Source: Mycobacteriales bacterium (GTDB lineage: Bacteria; Actinomycetota; Actinomycetes; Mycobacteriales; SCTD01). Taken from it: a stretch of 64,000 nt of DNA. Within the stretch, counting starts at the first letter, position 1; the number at the start of each line of letters is the position of its first letter. Under the pieces are notes generated by a model. It worked only from the letters and a program-made list of their open reading frames with translations. It was not told where the DNA came from and made no database searches. The position numbers and the translations under genes are program-made. Shown here one piece after another: positions 15,660-38,685 of this stretch. The stretch covers positions 9,498 through 73,497 of the forward strand of contig DASTLY010000067.1 in assembly GCA_035714445.1 (NCBI GenBank), in the 5' to 3' direction.

Positions 15660-15934
15660 GTGTGCGAGTCTACGCGAGAACCGCGGTCGAGGCAAGGAAT
15701 GCGCAGGTCAGGCAGGGGAAGCTAGGCCGGGGCCGGGGCACGTGGACGGCCGACAACGCTCGGGCACCGCCCCTGCCGACCCGCTGCCCAGGCCGCCGCT
15801 GCGGCCCACCCGGCCTGCCCATCGACGGCAGCGACATCCGCGAGGCTGTCCCAGCCGGCCACACCGGCCCAGCGTCGGACGCGCCGCAGCCCTCACGACC
15901 CGACGGTGCGCGCCGCACTGCGCGAGAATGGCGC

Positions 15935-21198: not shown

Positions 21199-21915
21199 TC
21201 AGCCCCAGGAGCCGTCGTCGGCCTGCCACTGCACCGAGCACGCCATCAGGACGAAGAGCTCGGTCAGCGCGGGGAACAGCGGCACGAGCGGCGTTGCGAA
21301 GGCCAACAGCAGGGTGTCGTCGCGGTCGGGCACCGGCAGGTAGACCTCCACCAGGCGCTGCCGGCCGGGCTCCCACGGCTCCGCAGGCCCGTCGTGCACC
21401 ACGCCGAGGGCGGTCACGACCTGGTCCGCGATCCGCTGCACCTCGGCCTCGGCCCCGGCCGGTACACTCAGCGGCTGCACCTCGTCGCGGACGACGACCA
21501 CCCCGCGGCTGCCGCCGAGCTCCGTGACGCTGACCTCGAGCGCGTCCTCGTGCATTGCGGCGAGCGCCTGCAGGGACGCCTCGTCGGGCAGCGGGTGGGG
21601 CAGGACCGACACCAGGCAGCTCGCGCTGATCGGCCGCCCCTGCGCCTCCACCGCGAGCACGAGCAGCATCCGGGAGTACTCCGCGCCGGCCCGACGGGTC
21701 AGCGCGACGAGGTCCTCGACCAGCTCGCGCCGAAGCGTCGCCGTACGGTCGCGGGGCGCTGCCGCGTAGCGCCTCAGGAGCCAGGCACGGGCGGCCGTGC
21801 GCATGGCCGAGGCCTCCATCGGCAGCCGGACCCACGTCGGCGGCAGCACCAGGCGGTAGCGCGTCTGCTCGGCGACCTCGACGGCGGTCACACCCGCCAC
21901 GCTCACACCCGCCAC
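21199..21915 (-). CDS. hypothetical protein, paralogue 2 downstream of the T7SS-substrate-like gene (candidate immunity/accessory protein)
   Basis: Balanced composition. Last gene of the four-gene minus-strand cassette. Shares a block pattern with the preceding gene (see findings). The start could be an internal GTG, because ATG 21915 overlaps the upstream gene by 13 nt. Confidence 0.6.
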   Translation of the reverse strand: MAGVSVAGVTAVEVAEQTRYRLVLPPTWVRLPMEASAMRTAARAWLLRRYAAAPRDRTATLRRELVEDLVALTRRAGAEYSRMLLVLAVEAQGRPISASCLVSVLPHPLPDEASLQALAAMHEDALEVSVTELGGSRGVVVVRDEVQPLSVPAGAEAEVQRIADQVVTALGVVHDGPAEPWEPGRQRLVEVYLPVPDRDDTLLLAFATPLVPLFPALTELFVLMACSVQWQADDGSWG

Positions 21916-22526
21916 GTGAGCGACGAGGCGACGGCCTCCAGGGCGGGCTCGTACAGCTCACTGTCGACGAACGAGGCGAACCAGGTGCTGAGGAAGACCG
22001 TCGTGTCGGGGACCGGCCCGGACCAGACGTGGACGACGAGCGTCTCGACCACCTGCTGGTCCGGTCCCACACCGGCCGGGCCGGGCGACACCATGTACTG
22101 CTGCACCCGCATGCCGTTGCCGGCCGGCGCCTGGATCTCGGTGACCACGGGCTCGCCGAAGCGCTCGCCGCGGTCGACCACGACGCCGTCGACCACCGCG
22201 TCGAGCGGCATCGCCGCGGAGAACACCCACAGCTCGGTCACCGACACCGGCAGCAGGTCGTCCTGCGACAGCAGGGCGTACGCCGCCGCGAGCTGCCCGT
22301 CCTCCTCCTCGGCGCGTGCGCGCAGCCGCTCGACCAGCAGCGCGTAGCTCTGCACGTACAGCTGGACCACGGGCTCCGGCTCGACCAGGCCGCGTCCCCG
22401 CAGCCCCTCGGACACGACCGTCGCCGCCCAGTCGCCCGGGTCCACCTCCTCGGAGAAGGGCACCTCGAGCCACCGGTGGTCGAGCTGCACGACCATCGCC
22501 GGGCCGACCTCCGGCGACACCGTCAT
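21903..22526 (-). CDS. hypothetical protein, paralogue 1 downstream of the T7SS-substrate-like gene (candidate immunity/accessory protein)
   Basis: MTVSPEVGPAMVVQLDHRWLEVPFSEE... ATGA overlap with the upstream gene stop (22523-22526). The upstream part of track ORF 21903..23321 is R/G-rich artefact. Confidence 0.6.
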   Translation of the reverse strand: MTVSPEVGPAMVVQLDHRWLEVPFSEEVDPGDWAATVVSEGLRGRGLVEPEPVVQLYVQSYALLVERLRARAEEEDGQLAAAYALLSQDDLLPVSVTELWVFSAAMPLDAVVDGVVVDRGERFGEPVVTEIQAPAGNGMRVQQYMVSPGPAGVGPDQQVVETLVVHVWSGPVPDTTVFLSTWFASFVDSELYEPALEAVASSLTWRV

Positions 22527-23872
22527 CGGAGCTTGCTGAGAAGGTCCGTGACGACCTGGCCGTAGCTGCCGAGGTCCCAGGCGTCGTCGATGTCCACACC
22601 GTCCGACAGGTTCCGGTAGGCCTGGCCGAGACCGTTGACCGTGCCGAGCGTGGTCGCGAGCACGCCACCGGCGGCGACGTTCCGGGCGTACCTCGCCAGG
22701 TCCTCGAGCTTGACCGCATCGGGCGCCAGGCGCGCCGGCAGGTTGTGCAGCCCCCGCAGGTCGCCGAGGATCCGGCGGGCGTGCGCGAAGTCGGTCGCGG
22801 CCGCCTTGCCACCCTGCAGGACCGCGGCGGCCCGGCTGACCGCGGGCGCTGTCGTGGCGGCCGTGCGGGCAGCGTTCATCGCGTCGAAGGCGTCGTCGGC
22901 GAGGCGGGCCACCAGCGGCGCTCCGAAGTGGCTCCCCAGGATCGGCAGGCGGGACACGAAGTTGGCCCAGGCGAGCCGCATGCCGCCGAAGGCCTCGTCG
23001 AAGGCCTGCGCACCCTTGAGGTTCGCCATGCCTGCCTTCAGCACGGGCATCGACTTCGCCAGCGCCTTGGTCACGAGTGCGCCGGCGCCGAAGGTCGCCA
23101 CGCCGACCGCGTCGTACGCCACGTCCCACCAGGAGCCGTTCCCCGTGGCCGCCAGCCCGGTGTTGATGGCGAGGGATAGCAGTCCCGCGCCCACCGAGAC
23201 GGCCACCGCGATCCAGATCATGCCGCCGGTGGCCACGGTCAGCAGGACGATGCCGGCGATGAGGATGATGACGGCCAGGACCTTGGTGACGACCTTCAGC
23301 CAGCCCGCGTTGCGGTCCCACCAGCCGTCCTTCACCCCGTCGTCCAGCGCGCCGCGGATCGTGCGCGCGGCCGCGTCGGCGGCCTCCCTGGCCTTGGTCA
23401 CCTCGTCGTCGAACAGCCCTGCCAGGCGGGCGATCTCGTCGAGCGCAGCCTGCCGCTGGGCGTTCGCGCCGACCTGCTCGGGCGTCAGGGGCACACTCGC
23501 GCCGGTGGGGTCGGTGCCGGGGGTCGCGGCGTCCCGACCGGCCGCCGCGAGCTCCTGCCGCGCCATGAAGCAGTGCCAGGCGCCGTGGGTCTGCGCGACG
23601 TCCAGGGTGTCGGACACCGTCACGATCGTGCTGCCGACCCGCTCGTACCGCTCGCGGGACGTGTCGATGTCCTTGGCCAGGTCCTCGGTCTTCTCCCGGA
23701 ACGCGTCGGCGGCCTCGGTCTCCCAGTTGTTCTCGTCGGCGCAGCGGCGCAGCAGCCGGACGGACTCCGCGATCAGCTCAGCGGTCTTCACCAGCCCGGT
23801 GCCGTACGCCTTGATCTCGTACGGGTCGGCGGGAAAGGGGTCGCCGTCGGAGAGCGGGGTGTAGTCGGGCAC
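22523..23872 (-). CDS. T7SS-substrate-like membrane protein: N-terminal WXG100/LXG-like helical domain, central 4-5 TM helices, helical C-terminal domain of unknown function
   Basis: N-terminal about 110 aa is a predicted helical hairpin with NWETEAADAFREK at the turn, resembling the W-x-G...AADAF pattern of actinobacterial T7SS-secreted polymorphic proteins. Hydrophobic stretch WLKVVTKVLAVIILIAGIVLLTVATGGMIWIAVAVSVGAGLLSLAINTGLAA plus VGVATFGAGALV. GTG start 3 nt after the stop of the small upstream gene. Confidence 0.7.
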   Translation of the reverse strand: MPDYTPLSDGDPFPADPYEIKAYGTGLVKTAELIAESVRLLRRCADENNWETEAADAFREKTEDLAKDIDTSRERYERVGSTIVTVSDTLDVAQTHGAWHCFMARQELAAAGRDAATPGTDPTGASVPLTPEQVGANAQRQAALDEIARLAGLFDDEVTKAREAADAAARTIRGALDDGVKDGWWDRNAGWLKVVTKVLAVIILIAGIVLLTVATGGMIWIAVAVSVGAGLLSLAINTGLAATGNGSWWDVAYDAVGVATFGAGALVTKALAKSMPVLKAGMANLKGAQAFDEAFGGMRLAWANFVSRLPILGSHFGAPLVARLADDAFDAMNAARTAATTAPAVSRAAAVLQGGKAAATDFAHARRILGDLRGLHNLPARLAPDAVKLEDLARYARNVAAGGVLATTLGTVNGLGQAYRNLSDGVDIDDAWDLGSYGQVVTDLLSKLR

Positions 23873-23875
23873 AGG

Positions 23876-24160
23876 TCAGTCCTTCAGCAGCTCGGTCGCG
23901 GCACCGCTGTCGAACGCGCGGTAGTTCTGGCAGATCTGGCCGAGCATGTCCCCGGCGCCGGTGATGGCCTCCACCTGCTTGTCCCGGTTGTTCTCCCAGT
24001 TGTCGGTGAACTCCGCGACCGCGTCCCGCAGCGAGGGATAGCCGAGCGCGTCCGAGGCCGCCCGCTGCACCGAGGACGCGTCACGGAACGAGCCGGCCAG
24101 TGCCGACAGCGCCCCGGCGGTCTCCTCGAGCTCGGCCAGGTCGTACCTGTAGATCGTCAT
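23876..24160 (-). CDS. small WXG100-like helical protein (94 aa, no canonical W-x-G)
   Basis: MTIYRYDLAELEETAGALSALAG...FTDNWENNRDKQVEAI...YRAFD. Its size, predicted two-helix architecture and position immediately upstream of a T7SS-substrate-like gene fit an Esx-like partner. ATG 24160 chosen inside track ORF 23876..24199. Confidence 0.55.
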   Translation of the reverse strand: MTIYRYDLAELEETAGALSALAGSFRDASSVQRAASDALGYPSLRDAVAEFTDNWENNRDKQVEAITGAGDMLGQICQNYRAFDSGAATELLKD

Positions 24161-24305
24161 CGCGCGCCCACCACCGTCCTGCGCGCCCGGCACGCACAAG
24201 ATGCCACCCTCCCAGCCCGGACGGCTCGGACGCCGCCGTCAGGGACGACACCACCCGAATGGACCAGCGGGAGGCAGCCCGCCGGGGCCGTGCCATCGTG
24301 GCCGC

Positions 24306-26279: not shown

Positions 26280-26337
26280 CCACCGGCCGCTCGCCCGTCC
26301 GGGCCGTTCTGTCGGAGCGGTCCGGCATCCTGTCTGC

Positions 26338-29300
26338 ATGCGCCGCTTCACCCTGGTCGCCGGGGCCTCCGCCAAGTTCTGGGAGATCTCGCGGGACGAC
26401 GCCGCCGTGACGGTGCGCTTCGGTCGGCTCGAGACGCACGGGCAGACCAAGGTCAAGGACCTCGGCACCGCGGCGGCTGCCGTCGCCCACCTCGACGCGC
26501 TGGTCGCCGAGAAGCTGCGCAAGGGCTACACCGAGCAGCCGGGTGCGGCAGCCGAGCCCGCCGCAGAGCAGCCCGCTGCCCCGCCGGTGCCCGCTGCACC
26601 GCCGGTCCCCGCCGCCCCGCCAGTGCCGGTCGAGGCGCCCGAGGACCTGGCCGACGGCTCGTTCGAGCCACCGGCCGAGGACGAGTGGTCGGTGCCGGCG
26701 GCCGCGCGGGCCTCGGTCCACCCGATCCGCGGCGTCGACCCCGCCCGGGCCCCCGACCCGGACCCGGCGCCGTACGAGCGGGCGCTGGTCCAGCACCAGG
26801 CGCGGATCCGCGCGAGCATCGACCACCCGGCCACGGAGGACGACCTGCGGCAGGCGGGGCTGGCCGCCCTCGACGGCCGGCCGACAGCGCTCGGCGAGGC
26901 CGTCCTCGCCGCCGCCGTGGTCTACACGGGTGGCTACCGCAGGGCCGCCGATCTCGCCCGCAGCGCCTGGGACAGCTGGTGGCAGCGCCATCCCGCGGAC
27001 GTCGCCGTCCAGGCCCTGCTCGAGCTGTCGTTCCTGGCGCAGGCGGAGGGCTCGGACGCCCCCGGCGTCCAGCGCTCGCCCGGCATGCACGGGAGGCGCT
27101 ACAGCACGTCGCTCCCCATGCAGGAGCGCGCCCGCCGGGCGCTGGCGGCAGCGGACGACGACGCGTACGCCCGGGCGGTGGCCGTTCTCGAGCAGGCCGT
27201 GTCCGGTCCCGACGAGCTCGCCGTGGCCGCCTACCTCGCCCCCACCCGCCGGGACTGGGTAGCCGCAGCACTGTTACCGGAACCGACGGCACAGCCCCAC
27301 CTGCGCGAACGGCTGCTCGCCAGCGCGGCGACGGCCGAGCAGGCGGCGGCCGCCTGGCAGGCCCGCTCCAGGTCCTACGTCACCGTCGACCTGTCGCAGC
27401 TGACCTCGCTCGCGGCGCACCTCGGGCCGGCCGCCACGCCGGTGCTGCTCGCCGCGCTCGACGCGGCCCCCTCCGTCGACGACGCGCGCCGCATCCTGGA
27501 CCTGCTCGTCCTGCTCCCCGGCGAGCAGACGTTCCGCGGGCTGCTGCAGCGGCTGGACGTGCGCGGCGTCTCGCCCGCGGTGCTGGCGGCCAAGGAGCGC
27601 CAGCCGTTCCGGGCGACGCGGCTGCTCGCGGAGCAGGCCGCCGGCTCCTCGGCGACGGCCAGGACCTGCGCAGCGCTGCTGCGGACGCACCTGTCCGCCC
27701 ACCCTGAGACGACGGCCGTCGCGTCGCTGCTCGACCCGCCGGCCCGCGCGGCGCTGGCGGCGGCCGTACCGCCCCGGGACGAGCGTCCGGTGGCCGACCC
27801 CGCCCAGCTGCCGGGCGTGCTCACGGCGCCGCCCTGGGAGCGCCGCGGCCCGGCAGCCCGACCGGTCGTCGTGGCCGGTCTGGTCGCCGACGTCCCGGTG
27901 CAGGTGCGCTGGGAGCCGGGCGAGCGGGAGCGGTGGCGCGTCCGGCCGGGCCGGTGGGAGCGCTTCGCCCGCGACTGGGACACCGCGCTGCGCGAGCACC
28001 GCTACTCGCGCGTCGAGCTGCTCGCCGTCGCACCGCCCGCCATCGGACGCCCCTACCTCGAGGACACGTCCGGCGCCGTCCTGTGGACCGACCTGGCGAG
28101 CGCGCAAGGCGTGCTCGCCCAGTACGAGGCGGCCGCGGTGCCGCTCCTGCTCCAGCTGGCAAGCGACAGCGCCGGTCTGGCCGAGGCCCTGCTCCCGGTC
28201 GAGTTCGGCGACGTCGCGGTGGCGATGGCCGAGTGGCTGGCGCGGCGGCGCTCGGTGCGGCCGGTCGCGCTCGCATGGTTCGCACGGCACGCCGACGCGG
28301 CCGCGCGGGCGCTCGTCCCGGCCGCCCTCGACAAGCCGGGCGCCCGCCGACGCGCCGCCGAGCGCGCCCTGCGGGTGGTCGCGGCCCAGGATCCCGGCGT
28401 CGTCGAGCGGGCCGCCGCGTCGTACGGCCCGGCGGCCGCTGCTGGGACGGCGGCGGTGCTCGCCACCGACCCGCTCGACGTGCTGCCGGCGAAGGTCCCC
28501 CCGCTACCGACCTGGCTCGACGTGCACACCCTGCCGGCCGTCCTGCTCGCCGACGGCAGCGCCCGGCTCGACCCGGCCGCCGTACGCCGGCTGCTGACCT
28601 GCCTGGCGCTGTCCGAGCCGGACGAGCCGTACGCCGGGGTGGAGCAGGCCCTGCCCGCGCTGGACCCGGGGTCGGTCGCGGCCTGTGCCCGGGGGGCGCT
28701 GGCGGCCTGGCGGCTGGCCGACGAGCCGGCCAAGGAGGGCTGGGTGCTGCGCGCCCAGGGCCTGGTCGGCGACGACGAGACCGCCCGGCTGCTGAGCCCG
28801 ATGATCACGGCCTGGCCCAAGGCGGGTGGCAGCACCAAGGCGGGGACCGGCGTCGAGGTGCTCGCGGCGATCGGCTCCGACGTCGCGCTCATGCACCTGC
28901 ACCGGATCGCGGAGCGGGCACCGTCCAAGCCGCTGCGCGAGCGGGCGGGCGTGCTCGTGGGCCAGGTCGCGGACGACCTGGGCCTGACCCCCGACGAGCT
29001 GGGCGACCGGCTGGTCCCCGACTTCGGGCTCGACGGGGACGGCCGGACCGTCCTCGACTACGGCCCACGGCAGTTCGTGGTCGGGTTCGACGAGGCCCTC
29101 AAGCCCTACGTCGAGGAGGGCGGCACCCGCCGGCCCGCGCTGCCCAAGCCCGCCGCCAAGGACGACCCGGAGCTGGCGCCCGCCGCGTACGCGCGGTTCG
29201 CCGGGCTGAGAAAGGACGTCAAGGTCGTGGCGGCCGACCAGCTGCGGCGCTTCGAGCGGGCGATGGTGGACCAGCGGCGCTGGACCGCCGCCGACCAGCG

Positions 29301-29928
29301 CCGGCTGCTCGTCGAGCACCCGCTGCTGTGGCACCTGGCCCGCCGGCTGGTCTGGGCGGTCTTCGAGGACGGGCCGCCGCGGGCGTTCCGGGTCGCGGAG
29401 GACCGCACCCTCGCCGACCGGAACGATGCCGAGTTCACCCTGCCGGGCGACGCGACCGTGGGCGTCGCGCACCCGCTGCACCTGGGCGAGGACGTCGCGG
29501 TCTGGGCCGAGCTGTTCGCCGACTACGAGGTGATGCAGCCCTTCCCCCAGCTCGGCCGCGAGGTCCTGCACCTGACGCCGCAGGAGCGGACCGCGACCGC
29601 GCTGACCCGCTTCGCCGACACGAGCATCGAGACGACCCGGCTGTTCGGCCTGGCGTCCCGGGGCTGGGAGCGCTCGTCGGCGCAGGACGGCGGCCTGCAG
29701 GACCGCCTGGAGAGGCAGCTGCCCGGCGGGCTGGTCGCCGTCGTGCACCTCGACCCGGGCATCGCGGCGGGCATGCCCGACGCCCTGCCGGAGCAGCGCC
29801 TGACCGCTGTGCACGTGCTGCCGGCCGACGCCGACCCGTACGCCGCCGGCGAGGCCCTCGCTCTCGGCGCTCTCGACGACGTCACCGCCTCGGAGGTCCT
29901 GCGCGACCTCACCCGCGTGGCGGGCTGA
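26338..29928 (+). CDS. WGR domain + long helical region + C-terminal DUF4132 protein (MolR/YehI-like, 1196 aa)
   Basis: N-terminal WGR domain MRRFTLVAGASAKFWEISRDDAAVTVRFGRLETHGQTKVKD...EKLRKGY. C-terminal block ...RRWTAADQRRLLVEHPLLWHLARRLVWAVFEDG...FADYEVMQPFPQLGRE matches my recollection of DUF4132. First gene of a coupled operon. Confidence 0.85.
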   Translation: MRRFTLVAGASAKFWEISRDDAAVTVRFGRLETHGQTKVKDLGTAAAAVAHLDALVAEKLRKGYTEQPGAAAEPAAEQPAAPPVPAAPPVPAAPPVPVEAPEDLADGSFEPPAEDEWSVPAAARASVHPIRGVDPARAPDPDPAPYERALVQHQARIRASIDHPATEDDLRQAGLAALDGRPTALGEAVLAAAVVYTGGYRRAADLARSAWDSWWQRHPADVAVQALLELSFLAQAEGSDAPGVQRSPGMHGRRYSTSLPMQERARRALAAADDDAYARAVAVLEQAVSGPDELAVAAYLAPTRRDWVAAALLPEPTAQPHLRERLLASAATAEQAAAAWQARSRSYVTVDLSQLTSLAAHLGPAATPVLLAALDAAPSVDDARRILDLLVLLPGEQTFRGLLQRLDVRGVSPAVLAAKERQPFRATRLLAEQAAGSSATARTCAALLRTHLSAHPETTAVASLLDPPARAALAAAVPPRDERPVADPAQLPGVLTAPPWERRGPAARPVVVAGLVADVPVQVRWEPGERERWRVRPGRWERFARDWDTALREHRYSRVELLAVAPPAIGRPYLEDTSGAVLWTDLASAQGVLAQYEAAAVPLLLQLASDSAGLAEALLPVEFGDVAVAMAEWLARRRSVRPVALAWFARHADAAARALVPAALDKPGARRRAAERALRVVAAQDPGVVERAAASYGPAAAAGTAAVLATDPLDVLPAKVPPLPTWLDVHTLPAVLLADGSARLDPAAVRRLLTCLALSEPDEPYAGVEQALPALDPGSVAACARGALAAWRLADEPAKEGWVLRAQGLVGDDETARLLSPMITAWPKAGGSTKAGTGVEVLAAIGSDVALMHLHRIAERAPSKPLRERAGVLVGQVADDLGLTPDELGDRLVPDFGLDGDGRTVLDYGPRQFVVGFDEALKPYVEEGGTRRPALPKPAAKDDPELAPAAYARFAGLRKDVKVVAADQLRRFERAMVDQRRWTAADQRRLLVEHPLLWHLARRLVWAVFEDGPPRAFRVAEDRTLADRNDAEFTLPGDATVGVAHPLHLGEDVAVWAELFADYEVMQPFPQLGREVLHLTPQERTATALTRFADTSIETTRLFGLASRGWERSSAQDGGLQDRLERQLPGGLVAVVHLDPGIAAGMPDALPEQRLTAVHVLPADADPYAAGEALALGALDDVTASEVLRDLTRVAG
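26575..26628 (+). repeat. 3 x 18-nt in-frame tandem repeat encoding (AAPPVP)x3 in the linker after the WGR domain
   Basis: gctgccccgccggtgccc / gctgcaccgccggtcccc / gccgccccgccagtgccg, read directly from the sequence. Confidence 0.85.
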
Positions 29929-31017
29929 GTGGCCGGGTCGGCCGACCAGCGGCCACCGGCGGAGCTCCGGTACGCCGCCGAGCTGGAGCGGCTGCGCGCC
30001 GACGACCGCGACCCGCGGCCGCCGGGCTGGCAGCTGAGCCTCACGGCCGCCCGCCGGTTCGTCGTGGGCGACCCGCGGGCCGGGGTGGAGCGCAAGTTCG
30101 TCGGTGACCCCTCGCTGGTCGACCGGGCCCTCGTCACGCTCGCGACCGGCCGGGGGCTGCTGCTGACCGGCGACCCGGGGACCGCGAAGTCGCTGCTGTC
30201 GGAGCTGCTCGCCGTGGCGGTCAGCGGCACCTCCACCTTGACGATCCAGGGCGGGGCGGCGACGACCGAGGACCAGGTCCGGTACGGCTGGAACTACGCC
30301 CTGCTCATCGCCGAGGGCCCGTCCGAGCGCTCGATCGTGCCCGCCCCGGTGCTGCGCGGGATGGCCGAGGGCAAGGTCGTCCGGTTCGAGGAGCTCACCC
30401 GTTGCGCGCCGGAGGTGCAGGACAGCCTGCTGTCGCTGCTGTCGGACCGGGTGCTGGCGATCCCCGAGCTGCCCGGTGAGCTCGGGATGGTGCTGGCGCA
30501 GGACGGCTTCAACGTCATCGCGACCGCCAACACCCGCGACCGCGGGGTGAACGAGATGAGCGCCGCGCTCAAGCGCCGGTTCAACTTCGAGACGGTCTTC
30601 CCGATCGCCGACCTCGACACCGAGCTCGCCCTGGTGACCGCCGAGGCGACCCGGCTGCTGGCCCGCTCGGGGGTGCAGGCCAGCCCCAGCCGCGACGTGC
30701 TCGAGGTGCTGGTCACGACCTTCCGCGAGCTCCGCAACGGGGTCACCGAGGACGGCGACGCGCTCGACCGGATGAGCTCGGTGATGAGCACCGCCGAGGC
30801 CGTGCAGGTCGCGCACGCGGTCGGCGTACGCGGCTGGTTCCTGCGCGGGGAGGCCGGCACCGCCGCCGACGTCGTGGAGTGCCTGGCCGGTACGGCGGCC
30901 AAGGACAGCCCGGAGGACCTCGCCCGCCTGCGCCGCTACCTCGAGCAGGTCGTGCCACGCAAGCGCGGCCGGCAGTGGCGGGCGGTGCACGACGCCCGGC
31001 ACGCTCTGCCCGGTTGA
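29929..31017 (+). CDS. MoxR-like AAA+ ATPase (YehL-like)
   Basis: Walker A LLLTGDPGTAKS. Walker B-like KVVRFEELTRC. Sensor-1 VIATANTR. Arg-finger region SAALKRRF. GTG start abuts the stop of the previous gene (TGAGTG at 29926-29931). Confidence 0.85.
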   Translation: MAGSADQRPPAELRYAAELERLRADDRDPRPPGWQLSLTAARRFVVGDPRAGVERKFVGDPSLVDRALVTLATGRGLLLTGDPGTAKSLLSELLAVAVSGTSTLTIQGGAATTEDQVRYGWNYALLIAEGPSERSIVPAPVLRGMAEGKVVRFEELTRCAPEVQDSLLSLLSDRVLAIPELPGELGMVLAQDGFNVIATANTRDRGVNEMSAALKRRFNFETVFPIADLDTELALVTAEATRLLARSGVQASPSRDVLEVLVTTFRELRNGVTEDGDALDRMSSVMSTAEAVQVAHAVGVRGWFLRGEAGTAADVVECLAGTAAKDSPEDLARLRRYLEQVVPRKRGRQWRAVHDARHALPG

Positions 31018-31027
31018 GGAGGCGCGG

Positions 31028-33277
31028 GTGAGCCTCACCGTCGTCGGGGTGCGGCACCACAGCCCCGCGTGCGCCCGGCTGGTGCAGCGCACGATCGAGC
31101 GGCTGCGGCCGGCGCACGTGCTCGTGGAGGGCCCGGCGGACATGAACGGGCGCATCGACGAGCTGCTGCTCGACCACGAGCTGCCGGTGGCGGTGTTCTC
31201 CAGCCTGCGCACCGACGAGCGGGTCCTGCGCTCCTGGAGCCCGCTGTGCGCGCACTCCCCCGAGCAGGTCGCGCTGCGGGCCGGCCGCGAGGCCGGGGCG
31301 CAGGTGCGCTTCATGGACCTGCCGGCCTGGCACCCGGCGTTCGGCGAGCGCGAGAACCGCTACAGCGACGCCGAGCGGCGCTACGCGCGGGTGCAGCAGC
31401 GGCTGTGCGAGCAGTTCGGCGTCGACAACACCGACGTGCTCTGGGACACCCTCGTCGAGGTCCCGGACGACACCGACCTCGCCGAGCGCCTCGCGGCGTA
31501 CTTCGACCTGCTCCGCGACGACCTGCCCGCCACCGACGGCGACGCGGCGCGGGAGGCGTACATGGCGGCGTGGCTGCGGGCCGCCGTCGCCGACGCGCAG
31601 GGGCGCCCGGTCGTCGCGGTCTGCGGCGGCTTCCACCGGCAGGCGCTGCTGAGGCTGGCCGCGGCGGACCCGGCCGACCCGGGCTGGCCGGAGGTGCCGG
31701 AGCCGCCCGAGGGCGCCGTCGGCGGCAGCTTCATCGTGCCGTTCTCCTTCCGTCGCCTCGACGCGTTCGCCGGCTACGCCAGCGGGATGCCGTCGCCCGG
31801 CTACTACCAGGACCTGTGGGAGGTCGGCGCCGCCGAGGCCGCGCAGCGGGTGACCCGGCGGGTCGTGCAGCGGCTGCGGGCCCGCCGCCAGCCGGTCTCG
31901 ACCGCCGACCTGGTGGCCGCCGCCGCGCTCACCGCGGGCCTCGCCCAGCTGCGCGGCCACGCCGTGCCCGCGCGCACCGACGTGCTCGACGGGCTGGTGT
32001 CGGCGCTGGTGAGCGACGCGCTCGAGGTGCCGCTGCCCTGGGCCGGGCCCGGCCGGCTGCGGGTCGGCACGGATGCCGTCGTCGTGGAGATGGTCGCGGC
32101 GCTGTCCGGCGACGCGGTCGGCCGGCTGCACCCCGACACCCCCGCGCCGCCGCTGGTGCACGACGTGGCGGCCGAGCTGGAGCGGCACGCCGTCCCGGAG
32201 GCGGGCGGGCTCACGGTCCTGCTCGCCGACGAGCCGGGCCTGTCCCGCAGCCGGGTGCTGCACCGGCTGGCCGTGCTCGGCCTGCCCGGCTGGGACCTGC
32301 TCGGGGTCAGCACCGACGGCGTGCAGGAGCGGTGGGAGTGCACGCCCGACGAGCACCGGCACGCCGCGCTGGCCGAGGCGGGGGCGTACGGCCGGACGCT
32401 CGCCGAGGCCGCCGGCGCGCGGCTCGCCGAGCGCGCCGAGCAGGCCGGGGGCAGCCCGGGCGCGCTCGCCGACGTGCTCGAGGCGGCCGTGCGCTGCGGG
32501 CTCGCGGCCGCGACCCGGCTCGTCGTGGACGCCGTGGGCGCTGCGGTCCGGACGGTCCCCGTGCTCGACGGGATGGGCGAGCTGCTCCGCACCGTCGTCC
32601 GGGTGCGCCGACGAACCCCCGGCTCCGAGCTGCTCCCGCTGCTGGGCGCCGCCGTCCGGCGCACCCTGTGGCTGCTCGAGGGCGAGACGGGCGCGCAGGC
32701 GCCCGCCGACCCCGCGCGCGAGCTCGCGGTCCTCGGCCTGCGCGACGCCGCCCTCGACACCGGCGACCGGCCCGCGGTGCTGGACCTGGCCCGCCGGCTC
32801 GCCGACGACCGGGAGCGCCCGGCCGACCTGCGCGGGGCGTGCGTGGGACTGCTGTGGGTGCTGGAGCCGACCGGCGGCAGCGGCGCCGCCGCGGCCTCCG
32901 CGGCCCGGTCGGCGACGACGCCGGGCCGGCTCGGCGACTGGCTCGCGGGGCTGTTCGCCGTGGCGCGTGAGCAGGTGCTGCTGGACGACACCGACGACGG
33001 CGTGCTGGCGGCCGTCGACGCCACCCTCACCCGGCTGACCAGCGGGGACTTCCTGGCGGCCCTGCCCGCCCTGCGGCAGGCCTTTGCGTGGTTCCCGCCC
33101 CGCGAGCGCGAGCAGGTGGCCGCCCTGCTCCTGGCCCGGCGCGGGCTGCGCGGCTCGGCCGCCGCCCTGCTGCGCACCGCCGCCGACCCGCTGCTGCTCG
33201 CCCGGGCCGCCGAGGTCGAGGCGCGGGTGACCGGGCTGCTCACCCGCGAGCACCTGCTCCTGGGCGTCGACCCGTGA
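31028..33277 (+). CDS. DUF5682-like protein (YehM-like, 749 aa) with TraB/TIKI-like N-terminal motif
   Basis: N-terminus LTVVGVRHHSPACARLVQRTIERLRPAHVLVEGPADMNGR. GAGGAGG Shine-Dalgarno 6 nt upstream of GTG 31028. Position between the AAA+ and vWA genes. Confidence 0.8.
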   Translation: MSLTVVGVRHHSPACARLVQRTIERLRPAHVLVEGPADMNGRIDELLLDHELPVAVFSSLRTDERVLRSWSPLCAHSPEQVALRAGREAGAQVRFMDLPAWHPAFGERENRYSDAERRYARVQQRLCEQFGVDNTDVLWDTLVEVPDDTDLAERLAAYFDLLRDDLPATDGDAAREAYMAAWLRAAVADAQGRPVVAVCGGFHRQALLRLAAADPADPGWPEVPEPPEGAVGGSFIVPFSFRRLDAFAGYASGMPSPGYYQDLWEVGAAEAAQRVTRRVVQRLRARRQPVSTADLVAAAALTAGLAQLRGHAVPARTDVLDGLVSALVSDALEVPLPWAGPGRLRVGTDAVVVEMVAALSGDAVGRLHPDTPAPPLVHDVAAELERHAVPEAGGLTVLLADEPGLSRSRVLHRLAVLGLPGWDLLGVSTDGVQERWECTPDEHRHAALAEAGAYGRTLAEAAGARLAERAEQAGGSPGALADVLEAAVRCGLAAATRLVVDAVGAAVRTVPVLDGMGELLRTVVRVRRRTPGSELLPLLGAAVRRTLWLLEGETGAQAPADPARELAVLGLRDAALDTGDRPAVLDLARRLADDRERPADLRGACVGLLWVLEPTGGSGAAAASAARSATTPGRLGDWLAGLFAVAREQVLLDDTDDGVLAAVDATLTRLTSGDFLAALPALRQAFAWFPPREREQVAALLLARRGLRGSAAALLRTAADPLLLARAAEVEARVTGLLTREHLLLGVDP

Positions 33278-34398
33278 CCGGGCCGGACGCGGACCTCGAG
33301 CGGTGGCGGCTGGTGCTGGGCAGCGCCGCCGAGGGCGCGCTCGGCAGCGGCGCGCTGGGCGGGTCGGCCGCCCGCCAGGACGCCGCCCTCGACTGGCTGT
33401 ACGGGCGCGACCCGGAGCTCGGCCGGCGCGGCGAGCGGGCGGCGGGCTCCGGCCCGAGCCCGCTGACCGCCGTGGACTGGCTCGACGAGATCCACGAGCT
33501 GTTCCCGCGCGCGGTGGTGGAGCGGCTGGAGCGTGACGCGGTGGAGCGCTACGACATCCACGAGATCGTCACCGACCCGGCTGTCCTGCAGCGGGTCGAG
33601 CCCAACCCCGGGCTGCTGCGCGCGGTCCTGCGTACCAAGCACCTGATGAACCCGGACGTCCTGGTGCTGGCCCGACGCCTGGTGGCCGAGGTCGTCCGCC
33701 GGCTGCAGGAGCAGCTCGCCACGCAGGTGCGGCAGTCCTTCTCCGGCGCCCGGTCACGCCAGCGGTCCCGGCTGGCCCGGGCCGCAGCCTTCGACGCCGC
33801 GCGGACGGTACGGGCCAACCTCAGGCACTACCAGGGCGAGCAGCGGCGGCTGGTGGTGCAGACGCCGTGCTTCCTGGCCCGGCAGCGGCGCGAGGTCGAC
33901 GAGTGGCAGGTGATCCTCGTCGTCGACCAGTCGGGCTCGATGGTCGGCTCGGTCATCCACTCCGCCGTCACCGCGGCCTGCCTGTGGGGCCTGCCCGGTG
34001 TGCGGGCGCACCTGGTGGTCTTCGACACCGAGGTGGTCGACCTGACCTCCGACGTGGACGACCCGGTCGAGGTGCTCATGCGCACCCAGCTCGGCGGCGG
34101 CACGGACATCGCCAAGGCGATGGCGTACGCCGCCGACCTCGTACGCACCCCCCGGCGCACCGTCGTCGCGCTGGTCACCGACTTCTTCGAGGGCGGCGAC
34201 CGCGGCTGGCTCGAGCGCACCGTGCGCGAGCTCGTCGACCAGGGCAGCACGGTGCTCGGGCTGGCGGCGCTCGACGAGGACTCGGCACCGGCGTACGACC
34301 GGGAGCTGGCGCAGCGCCTGGCCGATCTCGGCATGCACGTGGGGGCGATGACGCCGGGCGAGCTCGTGGAGTTCGTGGCCGAGACGGTGGGCCGCTAG
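33274..34398 (+). CDS. von Willebrand factor A (vWA) domain protein (YehP-like)
   Basis: MIDAS motif VILVVDQSGSM, with downstream GGGTDI and LVTDFFEGG. GTGA overlap with the previous gene at 33274-33277. Confidence 0.85.
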   Translation: MTGPDADLERWRLVLGSAAEGALGSGALGGSAARQDAALDWLYGRDPELGRRGERAAGSGPSPLTAVDWLDEIHELFPRAVVERLERDAVERYDIHEIVTDPAVLQRVEPNPGLLRAVLRTKHLMNPDVLVLARRLVAEVVRRLQEQLATQVRQSFSGARSRQRSRLARAAAFDAARTVRANLRHYQGEQRRLVVQTPCFLARQRREVDEWQVILVVDQSGSMVGSVIHSAVTAACLWGLPGVRAHLVVFDTEVVDLTSDVDDPVEVLMRTQLGGGTDIAKAMAYAADLVRTPRRTVVALVTDFFEGGDRGWLERTVRELVDQGSTVLGLAALDEDSAPAYDRELAQRLADLGMHVGAMTPGELVEFVAETVGR

Positions 34399-36332
34399 TG
34401 GCGCGCCCCGACCTGCTCGCGCTGACCGACGACGCGCTGGCCGCCCTCGCCAACCGCGGCATCGTCAAACGGGCCGTGCGCGAGTACGAGGCCGGCGGCG
34501 GCCCCGCGCTCGTCGACTCGCCGGACGGCACCGTGACGGCGACCTGGCCGGACGGCACCTCGACCACCCTGGCGCCGGGCCGCACCCTGGAGCAGGCCGG
34601 TTGCAGCTGCGCCGCGTCCGGGGTCTGCCGGCACCGGGTCCTGCTCGCGATCGCGTACCGCACGCACCGCCCCCGTGAGGACCAGCCCGATCTTCGCTCT
34701 CCGGGGGGCTACGACGACGACCAGCTCGCGCAGCACCTTGGCGAGCGGGCGATGACGGCCGCGCGGCGGGTCCTGCGGGCCGGCTACGCGGCGCGGGTGC
34801 GCCGGCCCACCCCGGACGACCCGGTCCCGACCGTCGAGCTGGCCTCGGTGACGGTGCGCTTCCTCGTGGCGGGCGAGCTGGGGTACGCCCGGGCCGACGC
34901 CGCCCGCGGCTCCCGGCCGGACGCCGTCGCCCTGGCCGTCTGGGCCTGCCGCGCTGCCGACTGCGCCGACCCGACCGGCGCCGTAGTCGACGTGCAGGTG
35001 GGCGGCGGGGCCGCTGCCTCCCCCACCGCGGCGCTCGACGCGACCGCGCAGGCCCTGGCCGAGCTGCTCGCGGACGGCGTGACCCGCGCGGACGCCGGGC
35101 ACGACGCGGCGCTGGCCGCGGCCCGCCGGGCCCTCGACGCCGGCAACCTGCGCTGGCCGGTGGACGCCCTCGACGCGCTCGTCGAGCAGGTCCGGGCCTA
35201 CCGGGAGCGCACCTCGTCCTACTCTCCCCGCACCGCGGCCGGGCTGGTCGCCGAGCTGGTGGCCCGGGCCCGGTGCGCCGGCGGCGGCGCCAGCCCCGCC
35301 TCGACGGTGCTGGGCACGCAGGAGAGCACCCGTACGCCGATGCGGCTGGCCCGGCTCACGGCGCTCGGCGCCCGGTTGCGCGGCACCGCCGACCTGCTCG
35401 CGCTCGAGGTCTACCTCGCCCACCCGGAGTCGGCGACCGTGCTGGTGCTGCGCCGGGCGTTCCCCGCCGCGCAGGACGGGACGGCGCCGGAGCTGTCCCG
35501 GGTGCTGAGCAGCCGGGCCGGCGGGCACCGGCTGGCCGCGCTGGCCGCCGCCGAGGTGGTGACCGAGAGCGCCGTACGCGCGGCGGACCGCAGCGTGCAC
35601 CTGGCGTCCTCGCAGCTGGCCCGCACCAGCATCTCCCCGTCGTCCGGCAGCTGGTCCGCGCTGCCCCCGGGCCTGCTGCTGGGCGACCTCGACGCCGCGG
35701 CGGCGGGCCTGGCCACCCGGCCGCCAGCGCCGGTACGGCCGCGGGTCGCGGCGCACGACCTGCGCGCGGTGCTCGTCGACGAGGTCGAGGACCTCAGCTG
35801 GCACCCCGGCGCCCAGCAGCTGCGGGCCCGCGTCCGCGCGCCGGCGGGGACGCTGCTGCTGCGGGCGCAGCACACCTCCGCCGCGCCGGGCGCCGTCGAC
35901 GCTCTGCAGTCCGCGCTGTCCGGGCAGGTGCGCGCCGTCGCCGGGCACCTGCACCGCGAGGCGGGGCAGCTGGTCCTCGAGCCGACCGCGGTCGCCGTCG
36001 ACGGCCGGGTCGTCGTCCCCGACCTCACGCCGCCGCAGGCCGGCGCACCGGTGCCCGTGGGGGTCCACGCGGCCGGCGACCCGCTGCAGGCAGCCGTGGA
36101 ACAGGCGCTGGACGTGTGCGCCGCGGTCGTGCACGCCGGCTGGCGGCCCGCGCCGGTGTCGTGGGCCGGCCGGGCACAGCGGGCCGCGGACGACCTGCGC
36201 CGGGCCGGGCTGCCGGTCGCCGCGACGGCGCTGCAGGAGCTGCCCGCCGCGCTCGCCGGCGACCCGACCGGCGCCCTGGCGAGCTGGGCCGACGTCCACC
36301 TGCGCCTGCTCGTGACCGCCGAGCAGCTGTAG
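34398..36332 (+). CDS. SWIM zinc-finger protein (YehQ-like)
   Basis: SWIM signature C-x-C-x(n)-C-x-H in GCSCAASGVCRHRVLLAIAY near the N-terminus. Long A/L-rich helical remainder. Start GTG 34398 overlaps the previous stop (TAGTG). Confidence 0.8.
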   Translation: MARPDLLALTDDALAALANRGIVKRAVREYEAGGGPALVDSPDGTVTATWPDGTSTTLAPGRTLEQAGCSCAASGVCRHRVLLAIAYRTHRPREDQPDLRSPGGYDDDQLAQHLGERAMTAARRVLRAGYAARVRRPTPDDPVPTVELASVTVRFLVAGELGYARADAARGSRPDAVALAVWACRAADCADPTGAVVDVQVGGGAAASPTAALDATAQALAELLADGVTRADAGHDAALAAARRALDAGNLRWPVDALDALVEQVRAYRERTSSYSPRTAAGLVAELVARARCAGGGASPASTVLGTQESTRTPMRLARLTALGARLRGTADLLALEVYLAHPESATVLVLRRAFPAAQDGTAPELSRVLSSRAGGHRLAALAAAEVVTESAVRAADRSVHLASSQLARTSISPSSGSWSALPPGLLLGDLDAAAAGLATRPPAPVRPRVAAHDLRAVLVDEVEDLSWHPGAQQLRARVRAPAGTLLLRAQHTSAAPGAVDALQSALSGQVRAVAGHLHREAGQLVLEPTAVAVDGRVVVPDLTPPQAGAPVPVGVHAAGDPLQAAVEQALDVCAAVVHAGWRPAPVSWAGRAQRAADDLRRAGLPVAATALQELPAALAGDPTGALASWADVHLRLLVTAEQL

Positions 36333-36349: not shown

Positions 36350-37969
36350 TCAGCGGCCCCGGGTGAGCGCGCCGGCGGCGCGGTGCCGGGCCACGGCGGC
36401 CGTGCCGAGGGCGACGCCCGCGACGACCAGCACGGCGGTGGGCAGCCGGTCGGGCGGCGGGGCGCCGGCGGCGAGCGCGGCGCGTACCGCGTCCCCCTGC
36501 AGGCGCAGCGCCAGCGCCGACCCGACGCAGGCCACGAGCACGGCGGCGAAGCCGGTGGTGCGGTAGCCGACGGCCGCCCAGGGCGGGAGCAGCGGTGACG
36601 GGTCGTCCGACAGGGCGCCGAGGGCGCCCGCGCCCGCCAGCAGCAGGGCGAGGGCCAGGGCGCCGAGCAGCAGCACCGGCACGTCGCGGCCGGCGACGAT
36701 GCCCAGGGCCGCGTCGGCGAGCACCCCGAGCACGCCGCCGACCAGCGCCAGCGCCGTGCTGACGAGCAGGTCGACCTGGGCCAGCCGGGCGTGCGGCACC
36801 GGCACCGACGCCGCCAGCGGCGCCTTGTCGACGTCGAGCCGGACCGGGTCGGCGAAGCGGGTGGCGACGACGGTGAGCACCACCCCGGCGGCCAGGGCCC
36901 AGATCACCGTGGGTCCGGCGTCCCGGCCGGTCGTGACGTGCGAGGCAGCGCCGAGGACCGCGCCGGTGCCGGCGGCGCAGGCCAGCAGCCGGGGGACGAC
37001 GGGAGTGCCCTGCTCCTGCAGGAACGCCTTGGCGGCCAGGGCGCGGCCGACCGTCGCCGCGGGCAGCGCCACCCGGCGGCGGCGCGCCCGGCGCAGCGGC
37101 TCGGTGCGCGTCAGGTAGACCGACGAGGTGAAGCCCAGCCGCAGCGCGGTACGCGTCACGTCCGCGCGGCGCGACCGGCCGAGCAGGCGCTCGGGGGTCG
37201 CGCGCGAGGCGGCCCGCACCGACAGCAGGCCGAGCGGGACGATCAGAGCGGCCAGCAGGAGGGCGGCCAGCAGCCCGGCCGCGGGCGCCGACCCCTGCGC
37301 GGCGCCGGACAGCGGCAGGCCGCGGGACGCCACGCCCGCGACCTCCCGCAGCGCGGGCTCCGGCCCGTCGACGGCCAGCCGCCGCCCCAGCTCGCCCAGC
37401 GCACCCAGCCCGGCCACCGCCAGCACGGCGCCGGCCAGCCGTACCAGGGGGGCCAGAGCCGGGGTGACCTGCACGAGCCAGGCGAGCAGGGTGACCGCGA
37501 CACCGAGCAGGACCGGCAGCAGCAGGTCGTCGCGCAGCACGGCGGCGGCCGGTGACCCGAGCGCGCGTACGTCGACGTAGACGAGCACGAGGCTGGCCAG
37601 CACGGCGGCGGCGACGGCCCGGCTGAGCGCGGCGAGCAGGGCCGGCAGCACCAGGGCCCGGCGCGGCAGCGGCCAGGTCAGCAGCAGGCGGGCGTCCTCG
37701 GGCGGCAGGACGACGGGGCCGCCGCGCACCGCCGCGACGGCGCGGCCGACGACGACGGCGAGACCGGCCGCCAGCAGCAGCAGCGGCTGGGCCGCCGCGG
37801 CGGCCTCCCGGGTGGGTCCGGGCCCGGGCGGGCTGCCGGAGAACAGCGCGTACAGCGGGAAGAACGCCACCAGCACCGTCACGTAGACCACGTACAGCGC
37901 GTCGCCGAGCGACTGGCGCTCGCGCCGTGCCTGCGACCGGGCGCGGCGCACCTGCGCCGCGACGCTCAT
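36350..37969 (-). CDS. polytopic membrane protein, putative permease partner of the adjacent ABC ATPase
   Basis: More than 10 hydrophobic helices. ATGA overlap with the ABC ATPase stop (37966-37969). The upstream part of track ORF 36350..38341 is R/A/G-rich artefact. Confidence 0.65.
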   Translation of the reverse strand: MSVAAQVRRARSQARRERQSLGDALYVVYVTVLVAFFPLYALFSGSPPGPGPTREAAAAAQPLLLLAAGLAVVVGRAVAAVRGGPVVLPPEDARLLLTWPLPRRALVLPALLAALSRAVAAAVLASLVLVYVDVRALGSPAAAVLRDDLLLPVLLGVAVTLLAWLVQVTPALAPLVRLAGAVLAVAGLGALGELGRRLAVDGPEPALREVAGVASRGLPLSGAAQGSAPAAGLLAALLLAALIVPLGLLSVRAASRATPERLLGRSRRADVTRTALRLGFTSSVYLTRTEPLRRARRRRVALPAATVGRALAAKAFLQEQGTPVVPRLLACAAGTGAVLGAASHVTTGRDAGPTVIWALAAGVVLTVVATRFADPVRLDVDKAPLAASVPVPHARLAQVDLLVSTALALVGGVLGVLADAALGIVAGRDVPVLLLGALALALLLAGAGALGALSDDPSPLLPPWAAVGYRTTGFAAVLVACVGSALALRLQGDAVRAALAAGAPPPDRLPTAVLVVAGVALGTAAVARHRAAGALTRGR

Positions 37970-38685
37970 ATGTCGTCGTCCGCGAACGGCACGACGTCGG
38001 CCGGGCTGCCCGAGCGCACCAGCACGCCGTCGGACAGCAGCAGCGCCCGGTCGGCGAAGTGCCCGACGCGGGCCCGGGCGTGGGTGGCGACGACCGCGGC
38101 AGCGCCCTGCGCGACCCGCTCGCGCAGCAGCTCGAGGAAGGCCGACCGGCCGGCGTCGTCCAGGCCGGAGAAGGGCTCGTCGACCAGCAGCAGGTCGGCG
38201 GGCCGCAGGAACGCCAGGGCCAGCCCGGCCTTCTGCCGCATCCCGCGGCTGAACGTCGCCGGCACCTCGTCGACGGCCGCCGACAGCGCGAGCCGCTCCA
38301 GCAGCTCGAGCAGCCGCGCCTCGCCGTCCGGCACGTCCCATGCCCCTGCGACGAACGCGCCGTGGGCGCGCAGGGTCAGGTCGGGGAACAGCAGCGGCTC
38401 GTCGGGCACGTACGCCACCCGCCGGCGGTGCTCGGGCTGGTCGGTGCCGGGCTCGACGAGCAGGTCGCCCACCCGTACCGACCCCTCGCTGGGGTCGAGC
38501 ACCCCGGCGACGACCGCGAGCGTCGTGGACTTGCCGGAGCCGTTGTGGCCGAGCACGGCGAGCACCTCGCCGGGCGCGACCTGGAAGCTCAGCGGGCCGA
38601 GCACCCGGGAGCCGTCGTAGTCCTTCGCCAGCCCGTCGACCGCGAGCACGGGAGGGACGACAGCGCGAGCGCTCTTGCGGGCCAC
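37966..38685 (-). CDS. ABC transporter ATP-binding protein
   Basis: Walker A GHNGSGKST. Signature-like FSRGMRQKAG. Walker B LLLVDEPFSGLD. Confidence 0.85.
   Translation of the reverse strand: MARKSARAVVPPVLAVDGLAKDYDGSRVLGPLSFQVAPGEVLAVLGHNGSGKSTTLAVVAGVLDPSEGSVRVGDLLVEPGTDQPEHRRRVAYVPDEPLLFPDLTLRAHGAFVAGAWDVPDGEARLLELLERLALSAAVDEVPATFSRGMRQKAGLALAFLRPADLLLVDEPFSGLDDAGRSAFLELLRERVAQGAAAVVATHARARVGHFADRALLLSDGVLVRSGSPADVVPFADDDI

Follow-up and report, generated by a model that had tools for sequence, protein, structure and literature searches.

The DNA analysed here is a 64-kb window from Mycobacteriales bacterium (GenBank assembly GCA_035714445.1, contig DASTLY010000067.1, positions 9,498 to 73,497 of the forward strand); the window is this whole stretch, and coordinates refer to it unless another locus is named. 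Positions 26338-36332 of its + strand are occupied by a five-gene operon encoding a WGR-solenoid-DUF4132 protein, a MoxR-type AAA+ ATPase, a DUF5682 protein, a von Willebrand A (vWA) protein and a SWIM-motif protein. Here we show that this locus is the actinobacterial orthologue of the Escherichia coli MolR/YehI plus YehL-YehM-YehP-YehQ module, and hence a further member of a known, uncharacterised family and not a new kind of system. New here is a PafBC-type promoter motif, detected in silico, that governs the whole operon in actinomycetes by prediction. We propose that the operon encodes a DNA-damage-induced MoxR/vWA remodelling machine in which variable WGR-solenoid proteins choose the target, a proposal on which our own confidence is evenly divided.

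YehL is one of seven named MoxR subfamilies and is still uncharacterised (PMC3893208). A literature search found no functional study of DUF4132, DUF5682, the yeh genes or a combination of MoxR, vWA, SWIM and WGR, in agreement with the prior expectation that no function had been established for this module.

Operon organization and the E. coli counterpart

The five co-directional open reading frames (ORFs) are tightly packed and fill the whole interval (Table 1). Genes 1 and 2 are joined at TGAGTG (29926-29931) with a gap of 0 nucleotides (nt); genes 2 and 3 are separated by 10 nt, with the stop codon of gene 2 at 31015-31017, GAGGAGG at 31016-31022 and a GTG start at 31028; genes 3 and 4 overlap by 4 nt (GTGA, 33274-33277), and genes 4 and 5 by 1 nt (TAGTG, 34396-34400). 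The five genes are a single translationally coupled operon. The initial annotation had described five packed same-strand genes and quoted these four junctions; the coordinates and the packing are borne out, and each junction is present at the given base when the sequence is read directly. The GC content of the window is about 75%, slightly higher in the operon than in its flanks, and many long antisense ORFs are present, a typical product of such GC-rich DNA. For gene 3, an identical protein has been recorded in a metagenome-assembled genome of Mycobacteriales. The five frames of the operon are favoured over these because their third-position GC is 0.91-0.99.

Table 1. The promoter motif and genes of the operon, with BLASTP comparison to the E. 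coli proteins (aa, amino acids)
Feature	Position	Strand	Length here/E. coli (aa)	E. coli homologue: identity (E value)	Basis
PafBC (RecA-NDp)-type bipartite promoter motif TGTCGGAGCGGTCCGGCATCCT	26310-26331	+			Published consensus, weight matrix
Gene 1, WGR-solenoid-DUF4132	26338-29928	+	1196/1210	YehI/MolR; to YehI, 34% over C-terminal 580 aa (4e-88)	Pfam, BLASTP, AlphaFold2, Foldseek
Gene 2, YehL-subfamily MoxR-type AAA+ ATPase	29929-31017	+	362/362	YehL: 62% over 356 aa (5e-160)	AAA_5, YehL identity, motifs
Gene 3, DUF5682	31028-33277	+	749/759	YehM: 38% (7e-129)	Pfam, BLASTP, AlphaFold2 model
Gene 4, CoxE-type von Willebrand A protein	33274-34398	+	374/378	YehP: 54% (1e-143)	VWA_CoxE, YehP identity
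Gene 5, SWIM-motif protein	34398-36332	+	~644 (from GTG at 34398)/614	YehQ: 29% over 634 aa (3e-53)	BLASTP, motif

The suggestion that the same domain set occurs in the E. coli molR/yehI-yehLMPQ locus proved correct: the five proteins are colinear with their E. coli homologues, with the same five families in the same order. The annotated order in strain K-12 is yehF (WGR), yehH (pseudogene), yehI (DUF4132), yehK, yehL, yehM, yehP and yehQ, where yehF plus yehH presumably correspond to the older name molR. In E. coli, as in related actinobacterial loci, tandem DUF4132 paralogues lie upstream of the motor genes, and a predicted damage-responsive promoter precedes the first paralogue, with a LexA repressor box in E. 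coli in place of the PafBC activator motif found here. The two clusters differ further in that the operon of the window lacks a YehK-like small gene, and in the location of the WGR domain, which is fused to the single DUF4132 protein in the window, whereas in K-12 it is found on the disrupted molR copy and YehI is devoid of it. The N-terminal half of gene 1 shows no recognisable similarity to YehI.

Conservation of the module

Related loci were identified with a scan based on a YehL alignment, using one genome per species, which yielded at least 599 stretches, at least 591 of them encoding a relative. The locus counts given here rest on the 80 best of these at least 591 relatives, all from Actinomycetota. 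The gene order 2-3-4-5 is the same in every one of these loci that is long enough to show it. None of the genes flanking the operon in the window adjoins the module in the other related loci and, upon clustering of 588 flanking proteins, no family was found in more than 12 of the 80 loci, which argues against a hidden sixth component. In eight of the loci, a common neighbour is present, exemplified by Actinomadura sp. (L024, 17339-18715, - strand), where a DUF2201_N metallopeptidase-like plus vWA-like protein is encoded just downstream; proteins with this domain combination serve as the partner of another MoxR system.

Outside the phylum, the gene set is found again in Bacillota and in Alpha-, Beta- and Gammaproteobacteria. 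A Bacillus mycoides plasmid carries all five genes, arranged as in the window, a Sinorhizobium conjugative plasmid carries the set in a permuted order, and an Iodobacter plasmid encodes two DUF4132 proteins along with the motor set. A plasmid of Deinococcus taeanensis (L084, 4780-12826) contains a SWIM-DUF5691-AAA-small ORF-DUF5682-vWA variant that lacks a DUF4132 gene; the SWIM and DUF5691 proteins of this variant have no detectable similarity to gene 5 of the window. Across plasmid records, DUF4132 and DUF5682 are represented in about 35 each, with 24 in common. The five families thus travel as a unit across phyla, as anticipated, in the 80 actinobacterial loci and on plasmids of Bacillota, Alphaproteobacteria and Betaproteobacteria.

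Within E. coli, yehLMPQ is present in 5353 of the 5426 complete genomes (98.7%), at a single chromosomal place. The identity to K-12 is 90-95% in 934 genomes and 80-90% in 8, a range that looks wide for a near-universal cluster.

A PafBC-type promoter motif upstream of the operon

The 58-nt gap that precedes gene 1 contains TGTCGGAGCGGTCCGGCATCCT, followed by 6 nt and the ATG at 26338. The PafBC consensus determined in vivo is tGTCgg(N10)tA(N3)T, comprising a PafBC-specific -26 element and a normal -10 hexamer (PMC8635444). The motif in the window, with the -26 element TGTCGG and the -10-like hexamer CATCCT, agrees with this consensus at every upper-case position, and reproduces the bipartite arrangement of the mycobacterial PafBC regulon, spaced from the start codon as expected. 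The end of the -10-like hexamer is separated from the ATG by 6 nt, so that a leaderless transcript is probable. A scan for sigma-70 promoters and terminators detected nothing, as expected at such a GC content.

The pattern TGTCRG-N10-[TC]ANNNT was searched for in the 80 related loci (1.59 Mb), where it matched 77 times on the operon strand and 19 times on the opposite strand. Within -250 to +60 of the starts of DUF4132 or ATPase genes (59.7 kb in total), 49 sites were found, against 0.7 expected from the opposite-strand density, and at least 47 of the 80 loci have one or more such sites. About 15 further matches on the operon strand were classed as intragenic where the gene caller had over-extended gene 1 upstream, so that the true number of loci with the motif is probably near 60. 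The N10 spacer varies among Streptomyces, Micromonospora, Lentzea, Nocardia, Actinomadura, Nonomuraea and Dactylosporangium while the half-sites are fixed, and recent common ancestry alone is therefore insufficient to account for the match. Where no DUF4132 gene lies immediately upstream (for example, in L006, L023 and L034), the motif precedes the ATPase gene, and in some tandem arrays (for example, L039) it precedes more than one paralogue. When scored with a matrix built from the related loci only, the site upstream of gene 1 reaches 15.1, and the next best site on either strand of the 64-kb window reaches 8.0. Membership of the operon in a PafBC regulon is predicted from the motif; the PafBC papers and supplement that we searched contain no mention of these gene families.

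Thirteen Streptomyces loci (L019, L022, L028, L030, L032, L035, L041, L043, L048, L052, L071, L078 and L079) carry TGTCAG(T/A)G-N8-TAnnnT upstream of the WGR-DUF4132 gene, at about 6220-6480. The presence of this element in these loci suggests that a PafBC-type regulon exists in Streptomyces. In Dactylosporangium sp. NPDC051541 (L036, 4175-4480), about 2 kb upstream of the operon, there are five copies of TGTC[AG]GTGCGGCCGGA.C.TG, 60-75 nt apart; this tandem repeat includes the PafBC -26 half-site.

Links of related genes to DNA damage

Two other regulators of the DNA damage response have been connected to relatives of gene 1. In E. coli, molR is listed as a LexA-regulated gene with a known SOS box (PMC6590174). 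About 10 nt ahead of the start of yehF we found CTGGATAAAATTACAG, which departs from a LexA box at one position; on its own this match is not significant, and it is accepted because molR is a published LexA target. In Deinococcus radiodurans, DRA0165-DRA0166 (DUF4132) and DR2173 (WGR) have RDRM operator sites, and the DRA0166 and DR2173 proteins rise after mitomycin C treatment in an IrrE-dependent manner (PMC8533742). These published cases of LexA and DdrO control, together with the conserved PafBC-type promoter, support the notion of stress surveillance that had been put forward for this operon.

In six Dactylosporangium loci, a gene for a DnaE-type DNA polymerase III alpha subunit directly follows the SWIM gene on the same strand (for example, L036, 16962-20612; L023, 16975-20517; L075, 17597-21079). 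The encoded protein contains PHP, pol3-alpha, finger, HHH and OB domains.

Protein components of the module

The initial annotation had assigned a WGR fold and a DUF4132-like region to the two ends of gene 1, Walker A and sensor motifs to gene 2, a MIDAS motif to gene 4 and a SWIM motif to gene 5. The first four assignments hold up against Pfam models, and the last one does so in part, as detailed below.

Gene 2 matches AAA_5 far above the cut-off (119.7 bits, E=1.2e-34) and contains the Walker A motif GDPGTAKS, the Walker B-like VVRFEE, sensor-1 ATAN (within VIATAN) and an arginine-rich RDRG...KRRF stretch. The acidic pair of the Walker B motif is an unusual E-E and not D-E. Walker A is conserved in all 76 homologues of gene 2 and VRFEE in 73, and the motif set as a whole in 73-76 of the 76. 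Gene 4 likewise far exceeds the cut-off of VWA_CoxE (181.9 bits, E=1.6e-53); its MIDAS consists of DQSGSM at aa 218-223, conserved in 71 of the 72 homologues, followed by GGGTD and VTDF. The catalytic motifs of the motor are thus intact. The conserved N-terminal 145 aa of gene 4 probably dock the vWA protein to its partners. In MoxR/vWA pairs such as CbbQ/O, NorQ/D, RavA/ViaA and CoxD/E, it is through the MIDAS site of the vWA protein that specific target proteins are remodelled.

Gene 1 combines a WGR domain (aa 4-68; 47.9 bits, cut-off 22), a disordered Pro/Ala linker (~aa 70-107), an alpha-helical, HEAT/ARM-like solenoid some 750 residues long (~aa 144-890) and a C-terminal alpha/beta region that contains DUF4132 (aa 929-1110; 193 bits) and many invariant charged residues. 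In the AlphaFold2 model (pLDDT 87), the WGR domain matches Protein Data Bank (PDB) entry 2ra8 with 41% identity and a root-mean-square deviation of 0.6 over 66 residues, and the solenoid resembles SF3B1, importins and CAND1; apart from the WGR match, Foldseek comparison of the full-length model retrieved only such helical-repeat look-alikes. The WGR domain of PARP1-3 contacts DNA breaks and, by analogy, that of gene 1 may bind nucleic acid or DNA breaks.

The two halves of gene 1 evolve at different rates: homologues share 30-32% identity in the N-terminal solenoid and 50-53% in the C-terminal half, and the respective values for 21 within-locus paralogue pairs are 47% and 66%. Gene 1 also diverges faster than the motor genes, with 57% identity to the nearest relative compared to about 80% for genes 2 and 3. 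In related loci, one to three or more tandem DUF4132 paralogues precede a single motor set. From the tandem paralogues, the variable solenoid and the faster divergence, we infer that the gene 1 proteins could be specificity subunits.

Gene 3 is a confident DUF5682 match (308 bits), and its AlphaFold2 model (pLDDT 91) consists of an N-terminal alpha/beta domain (~aa 1-260) followed by a mixed to alpha-helical repeat scaffold. Residues R9, H10, H11, E34, D38, E79, D97, E144, E176 and H203 of the N-terminal domain are invariant across five phyla, and this His/Glu/Asp constellation looks like a metal-dependent active site, so that the domain may carry a metal-dependent hydrolytic site. The pattern recalls the TIKI/TraB/PrgY/ChaN/erythromycin-esterase superfamily, in which, on an alpha/beta core, GxxH follows the first strand, a conserved Glu ends the second strand and a second GxxH occurs later. 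Gene 3 has GVRHH after strand 1, VLVEGP at strand 2 and GGFH after a later strand, with the first Gly not invariant, and the source database labels some DUF5682 proteins 'ChaN family lipoprotein'. Alignment of the DUF5682 N-terminal domain with an E. coli YbaP (TraB) profile using hhalign gave a non-significant E=0.15 in a shifted register, both profiles being of low diversity (Neff about 2). Searches of PDB sequences with the full-length and N-terminal DUF5682 profiles produced nothing better than E=0.37, and Foldseek with the full-length model, in which the helical part dominates the search, returned only helical-repeat matches.

Among 1.84 billion proteins, DUF5682 relatives form 2145 cluster representatives (50% identity) at E<=0.001 and 1465 at E<=1e-10. 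At least one of these, P0391 (1180 aa), is a natural fusion of DUF5682 (~19-756) with a CoxE-type vWA domain (814-1180) that is 54% identical to gene 4. This fusion and the 4-nt overlap of the two genes support the binding of the gene 3 scaffold to the vWA protein. Several other DUF5682 representatives are of similar length (1169-1185 aa).

Gene 5 contains CSCAASGVCRH near the N-terminus, and the remainder has no recognised domain. The motif claimed for this protein is present, whereas the Pfam gathering score was missed: the SWIM model (PF04434) yields no match with the full protein and 12.9 bits (E=0.083; cut-off 19.6) with the N-terminal fragment alone. The assignment nevertheless stands because CxCx6CxH is conserved in 63 of the 68 homologues, the motif aligns with that of E. 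coli YehQ, and YehQ is annotated in RefSeq as a SWIM protein. SWIM domains can mediate protein contacts.

Proposed mechanism and alternatives

Transcription from the PafBC-type promoter would switch the operon on in response to DNA damage, sensed as single-stranded DNA; induction by damage is predicted because of this promoter type. The YehL-type MoxR AAA+ ring encoded by gene 2 would be the motor that supplies ATP-driven force, and the CoxE-type vWA protein an adaptor gripping its partner through the MIDAS site. The DUF5682 protein would form a large scaffold on the vWA protein, possibly with a metal-dependent hydrolytic site, and the SWIM protein would serve as a zinc-finger accessory. Gene 1 would provide the exchangeable specificity subunit, with the conserved C-terminal half docking on the machine and the fast-evolving N-terminal solenoid, plus WGR where present, recognising the target. 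The machine would then remodel or extract a protein or nucleoprotein complex at damaged DNA. The data themselves show the orthology, the conservation as a unit, the intact motifs, the enriched promoter motif and the fusion of genes 3 and 4; what each subunit does, action on DNA and any hydrolytic step we infer from the known MoxR/vWA pairs, the WGR domains of PARP proteins and the conserved residues.

Several observations weigh against this scheme. The subunit roles rest on analogy, and no nuclease, helicase, ligase or other DNA-repair domain was found in any subunit. WGR is present in 41 of the 112 DUF4132 copies in the related loci and so absent from more than half of the paralogues, and the Deinococcus genes cited above encode stand-alone WGR and DUF4132 proteins and not the full module. 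The -10 hexamer in the window begins with C where T is preferred. Searches for SOS boxes ahead of the plasmid copies from Iodobacter, B. mycoides and Sinorhizobium gave chance-level results, and hence damage control is perhaps not universal. Finally, the mycobacterial PafBC motif is apparently not conserved in S. venezuelae (PMC9380542).

The module might instead be an anti-phage or anti-plasmid conflict system, in which the WGR-solenoid paralogues sense foreign DNA or proteins and the AAA+/vWA pair activates an effector, perhaps the hydrolase-like domain of DUF5682, with damage-type (single-stranded DNA) induction acting as an alarm for infection or prophages. Speaking for this are the tandem, fast-diverging, sensor-like paralogues and a patchy distribution over phyla combined with high identity, which for YehL amounts to 62% between E. 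coli and an actinomycete. Copies reside on mobilisable and conjugative plasmids, the Iodobacter copy adjoins a type I restriction-modification system and transposases, and defence systems are also controlled by relatives of PafBC among the WYL-family regulators. However, comparison of the five proteins to the 5027 models of PADLOC-DB 2.0 produced no meaningful match, only a chance-level one to Cas11 (E=0.0078). None of the PADLOC families had more than three matches among the 129 proteins encoded directly beside the module in the related actinobacterial loci, most of these matches being generic regulators and helicases, and Pfam points to ordinary metabolic or regulatory neighbours. The near-universal presence of the cluster at one locus in E. 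coli is unlike typical defence systems; a single relative, a truncated match, was detected among 2.9 million viral contigs; and there is no recognisable toxin or nuclease effector. The defence role and defence-island setting considered in the initial annotation thus find no support in the PADLOC comparison or in the scattered, generic neighbours, among which there is no conserved sixth gene. We consider a conflict system unlikely, though it deserves to be kept in mind.

MoxR-vWA 'ternary' conflict systems were reportedly described by Kaur, Burroughs, Iyer and Aravind in 2020 (Pfam bpMoxR family). These systems likewise combine a MoxR ATPase and a vWA protein with sensor-like partners, one component being diversified. 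Against the bpMoxR model, the score is sub-threshold (21.6 bits, cut-off 27), and the operon differs from the ternary systems in having no beta-propeller, recognised effector or defence-island context.

A more specific version of the remodelling scheme, which we regard as a long shot, is a damage-induced extraction machine comparable to eukaryotic p97/Cdc48 with SPRTN/Wss1. In such a machine, the WGR-solenoid proteins would act as adaptors that locate breaks, or proteins stalled on or cross-linked to DNA; the trapped protein would be pulled by the MoxR/vWA motor and cleaved at the conserved His/Glu/Asp site of DUF5682.

It appears improbable that the module is a MoxR/vWA maturation chaperone of the classical type, which, like CoxD/CoxE, NorQ/NorD or CobS/CobT, would provide a specific enzyme with a metal or cofactor or activate it. 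The large DUF4132 protein would in that case be the client or a substrate carrier, which recalls the old 'MolR, molybdate metabolism' idea. The vWA protein is indeed of the CoxE family, the ATPase is a MoxR protein, there is a weak resemblance to GvpN and cobaltochelatase subunits, and the 'ChaN family lipoprotein' names of DUF5682 proteins point the same way. In CoxD/CoxE, CbbQ/CbbO, NorQ/NorD and RavA/ViaA, as in the operon, an AAA_5/MoxR gene lies beside a vWA gene with an intact MIDAS, and ATP-driven remodelling of a MIDAS-held partner would be expected in either case. However, these pairs contain no counterpart of the module's other obligatory partners, DUF5682, the SWIM protein and the DUF4132 solenoid, and the operon has a damage-type promoter and no nearby client enzyme: no metalloenzyme or cofactor-biosynthesis gene is conserved beside the module in the 80 loci. 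Class I chelatases (CobNST/BchHID) have a three-part layout of a large subunit, an AAA_5 protein and a vWA protein, which the module resembles; gene 1, in contrast, is a HEAT-like solenoid unlike CobN/BchH, and NCBIfam scores are far below the cut-off (TIGR02442, 19 bits vs 779). The damage-type promoter, WGR and SWIM are left unaccounted for by a maturation role, and molybdenum-cofactor genes were unchanged in the Deinococcus study (PMC8533742).

A further alternative, to which we assign a similarly low probability, accepts a functional promoter motif but holds that the machine does not act on DNA; induced within a broad stress regulon, it would serve proteostasis or remodelling in general, and WGR and SWIM would be protein-protein modules: WGR is optional among DUF4132 copies, SWIM domains are capable of such contacts and PafBC controls about 150 genes, not all of them for repair (PMC8635444), but a damage-specific role fits better than a general one because three unrelated damage regulators, LexA, DdrO and (through its motif) PafBC, converge on WGR/DUF4132 genes.

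Other features of the window

The operon, suggested by the initial annotation to interrupt a conserved housekeeping synteny block, is adjoined in the window by neither a tRNA gene nor an integrase nor bracketing direct repeats, and the possibility that it forms a mobile island was dropped for this reason. On the - strand, at 21199-24199, there are four packed co-directional ORFs (238, 207, 449 and 107 aa) with coding-type third-position GC and no Pfam match, which diverge from an acyl-CoA synthetase gene located ahead of the operon. A 539-aa ORF at 36350-37969 (- strand), also lacking a Pfam match, lies in DNA that has about 80% GC and a pronounced AT skew, and overlaps by 4 nt the ABC-transporter ATPase gene located just upstream on the same strand (37966-38685); it may encode an unrecognised permease or partner of this transporter. 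A DUF222 protein (14226-15695, - strand) and a separate small HNH endonuclease (46935-47459, - strand) are unrelated to the operon; in actinobacteria, both families are often found in combination in repeat genes of the '13E12' type.

Implications

The yehI-yehLMPQ/molR genes, long-standing genes of unknown function, occur in several phyla and are carried by about 99% of E. coli genomes, and E. coli has just one MoxR ATPase besides YehL. Three unrelated damage regulators, LexA and DdrO/IrrE in published work and PafBC through the promoter type detected here in silico, point at WGR/DUF4132 genes. The open function of the family is thereby narrowed to a specific hypothesis that is amenable to standard genotoxic-stress assays and testable for the family as a whole. 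A further suggestion from this result is that promoters of the PafBC type are active in Streptomyces and other actinomycetes, for which their use has been questioned. If the extraction scheme were true, the module would represent a widespread, unrecognised pathway for the clearance of DNA-protein crosslinks or nucleoprotein complexes, controlled by LexA, DdrO or PafBC in different phyla.

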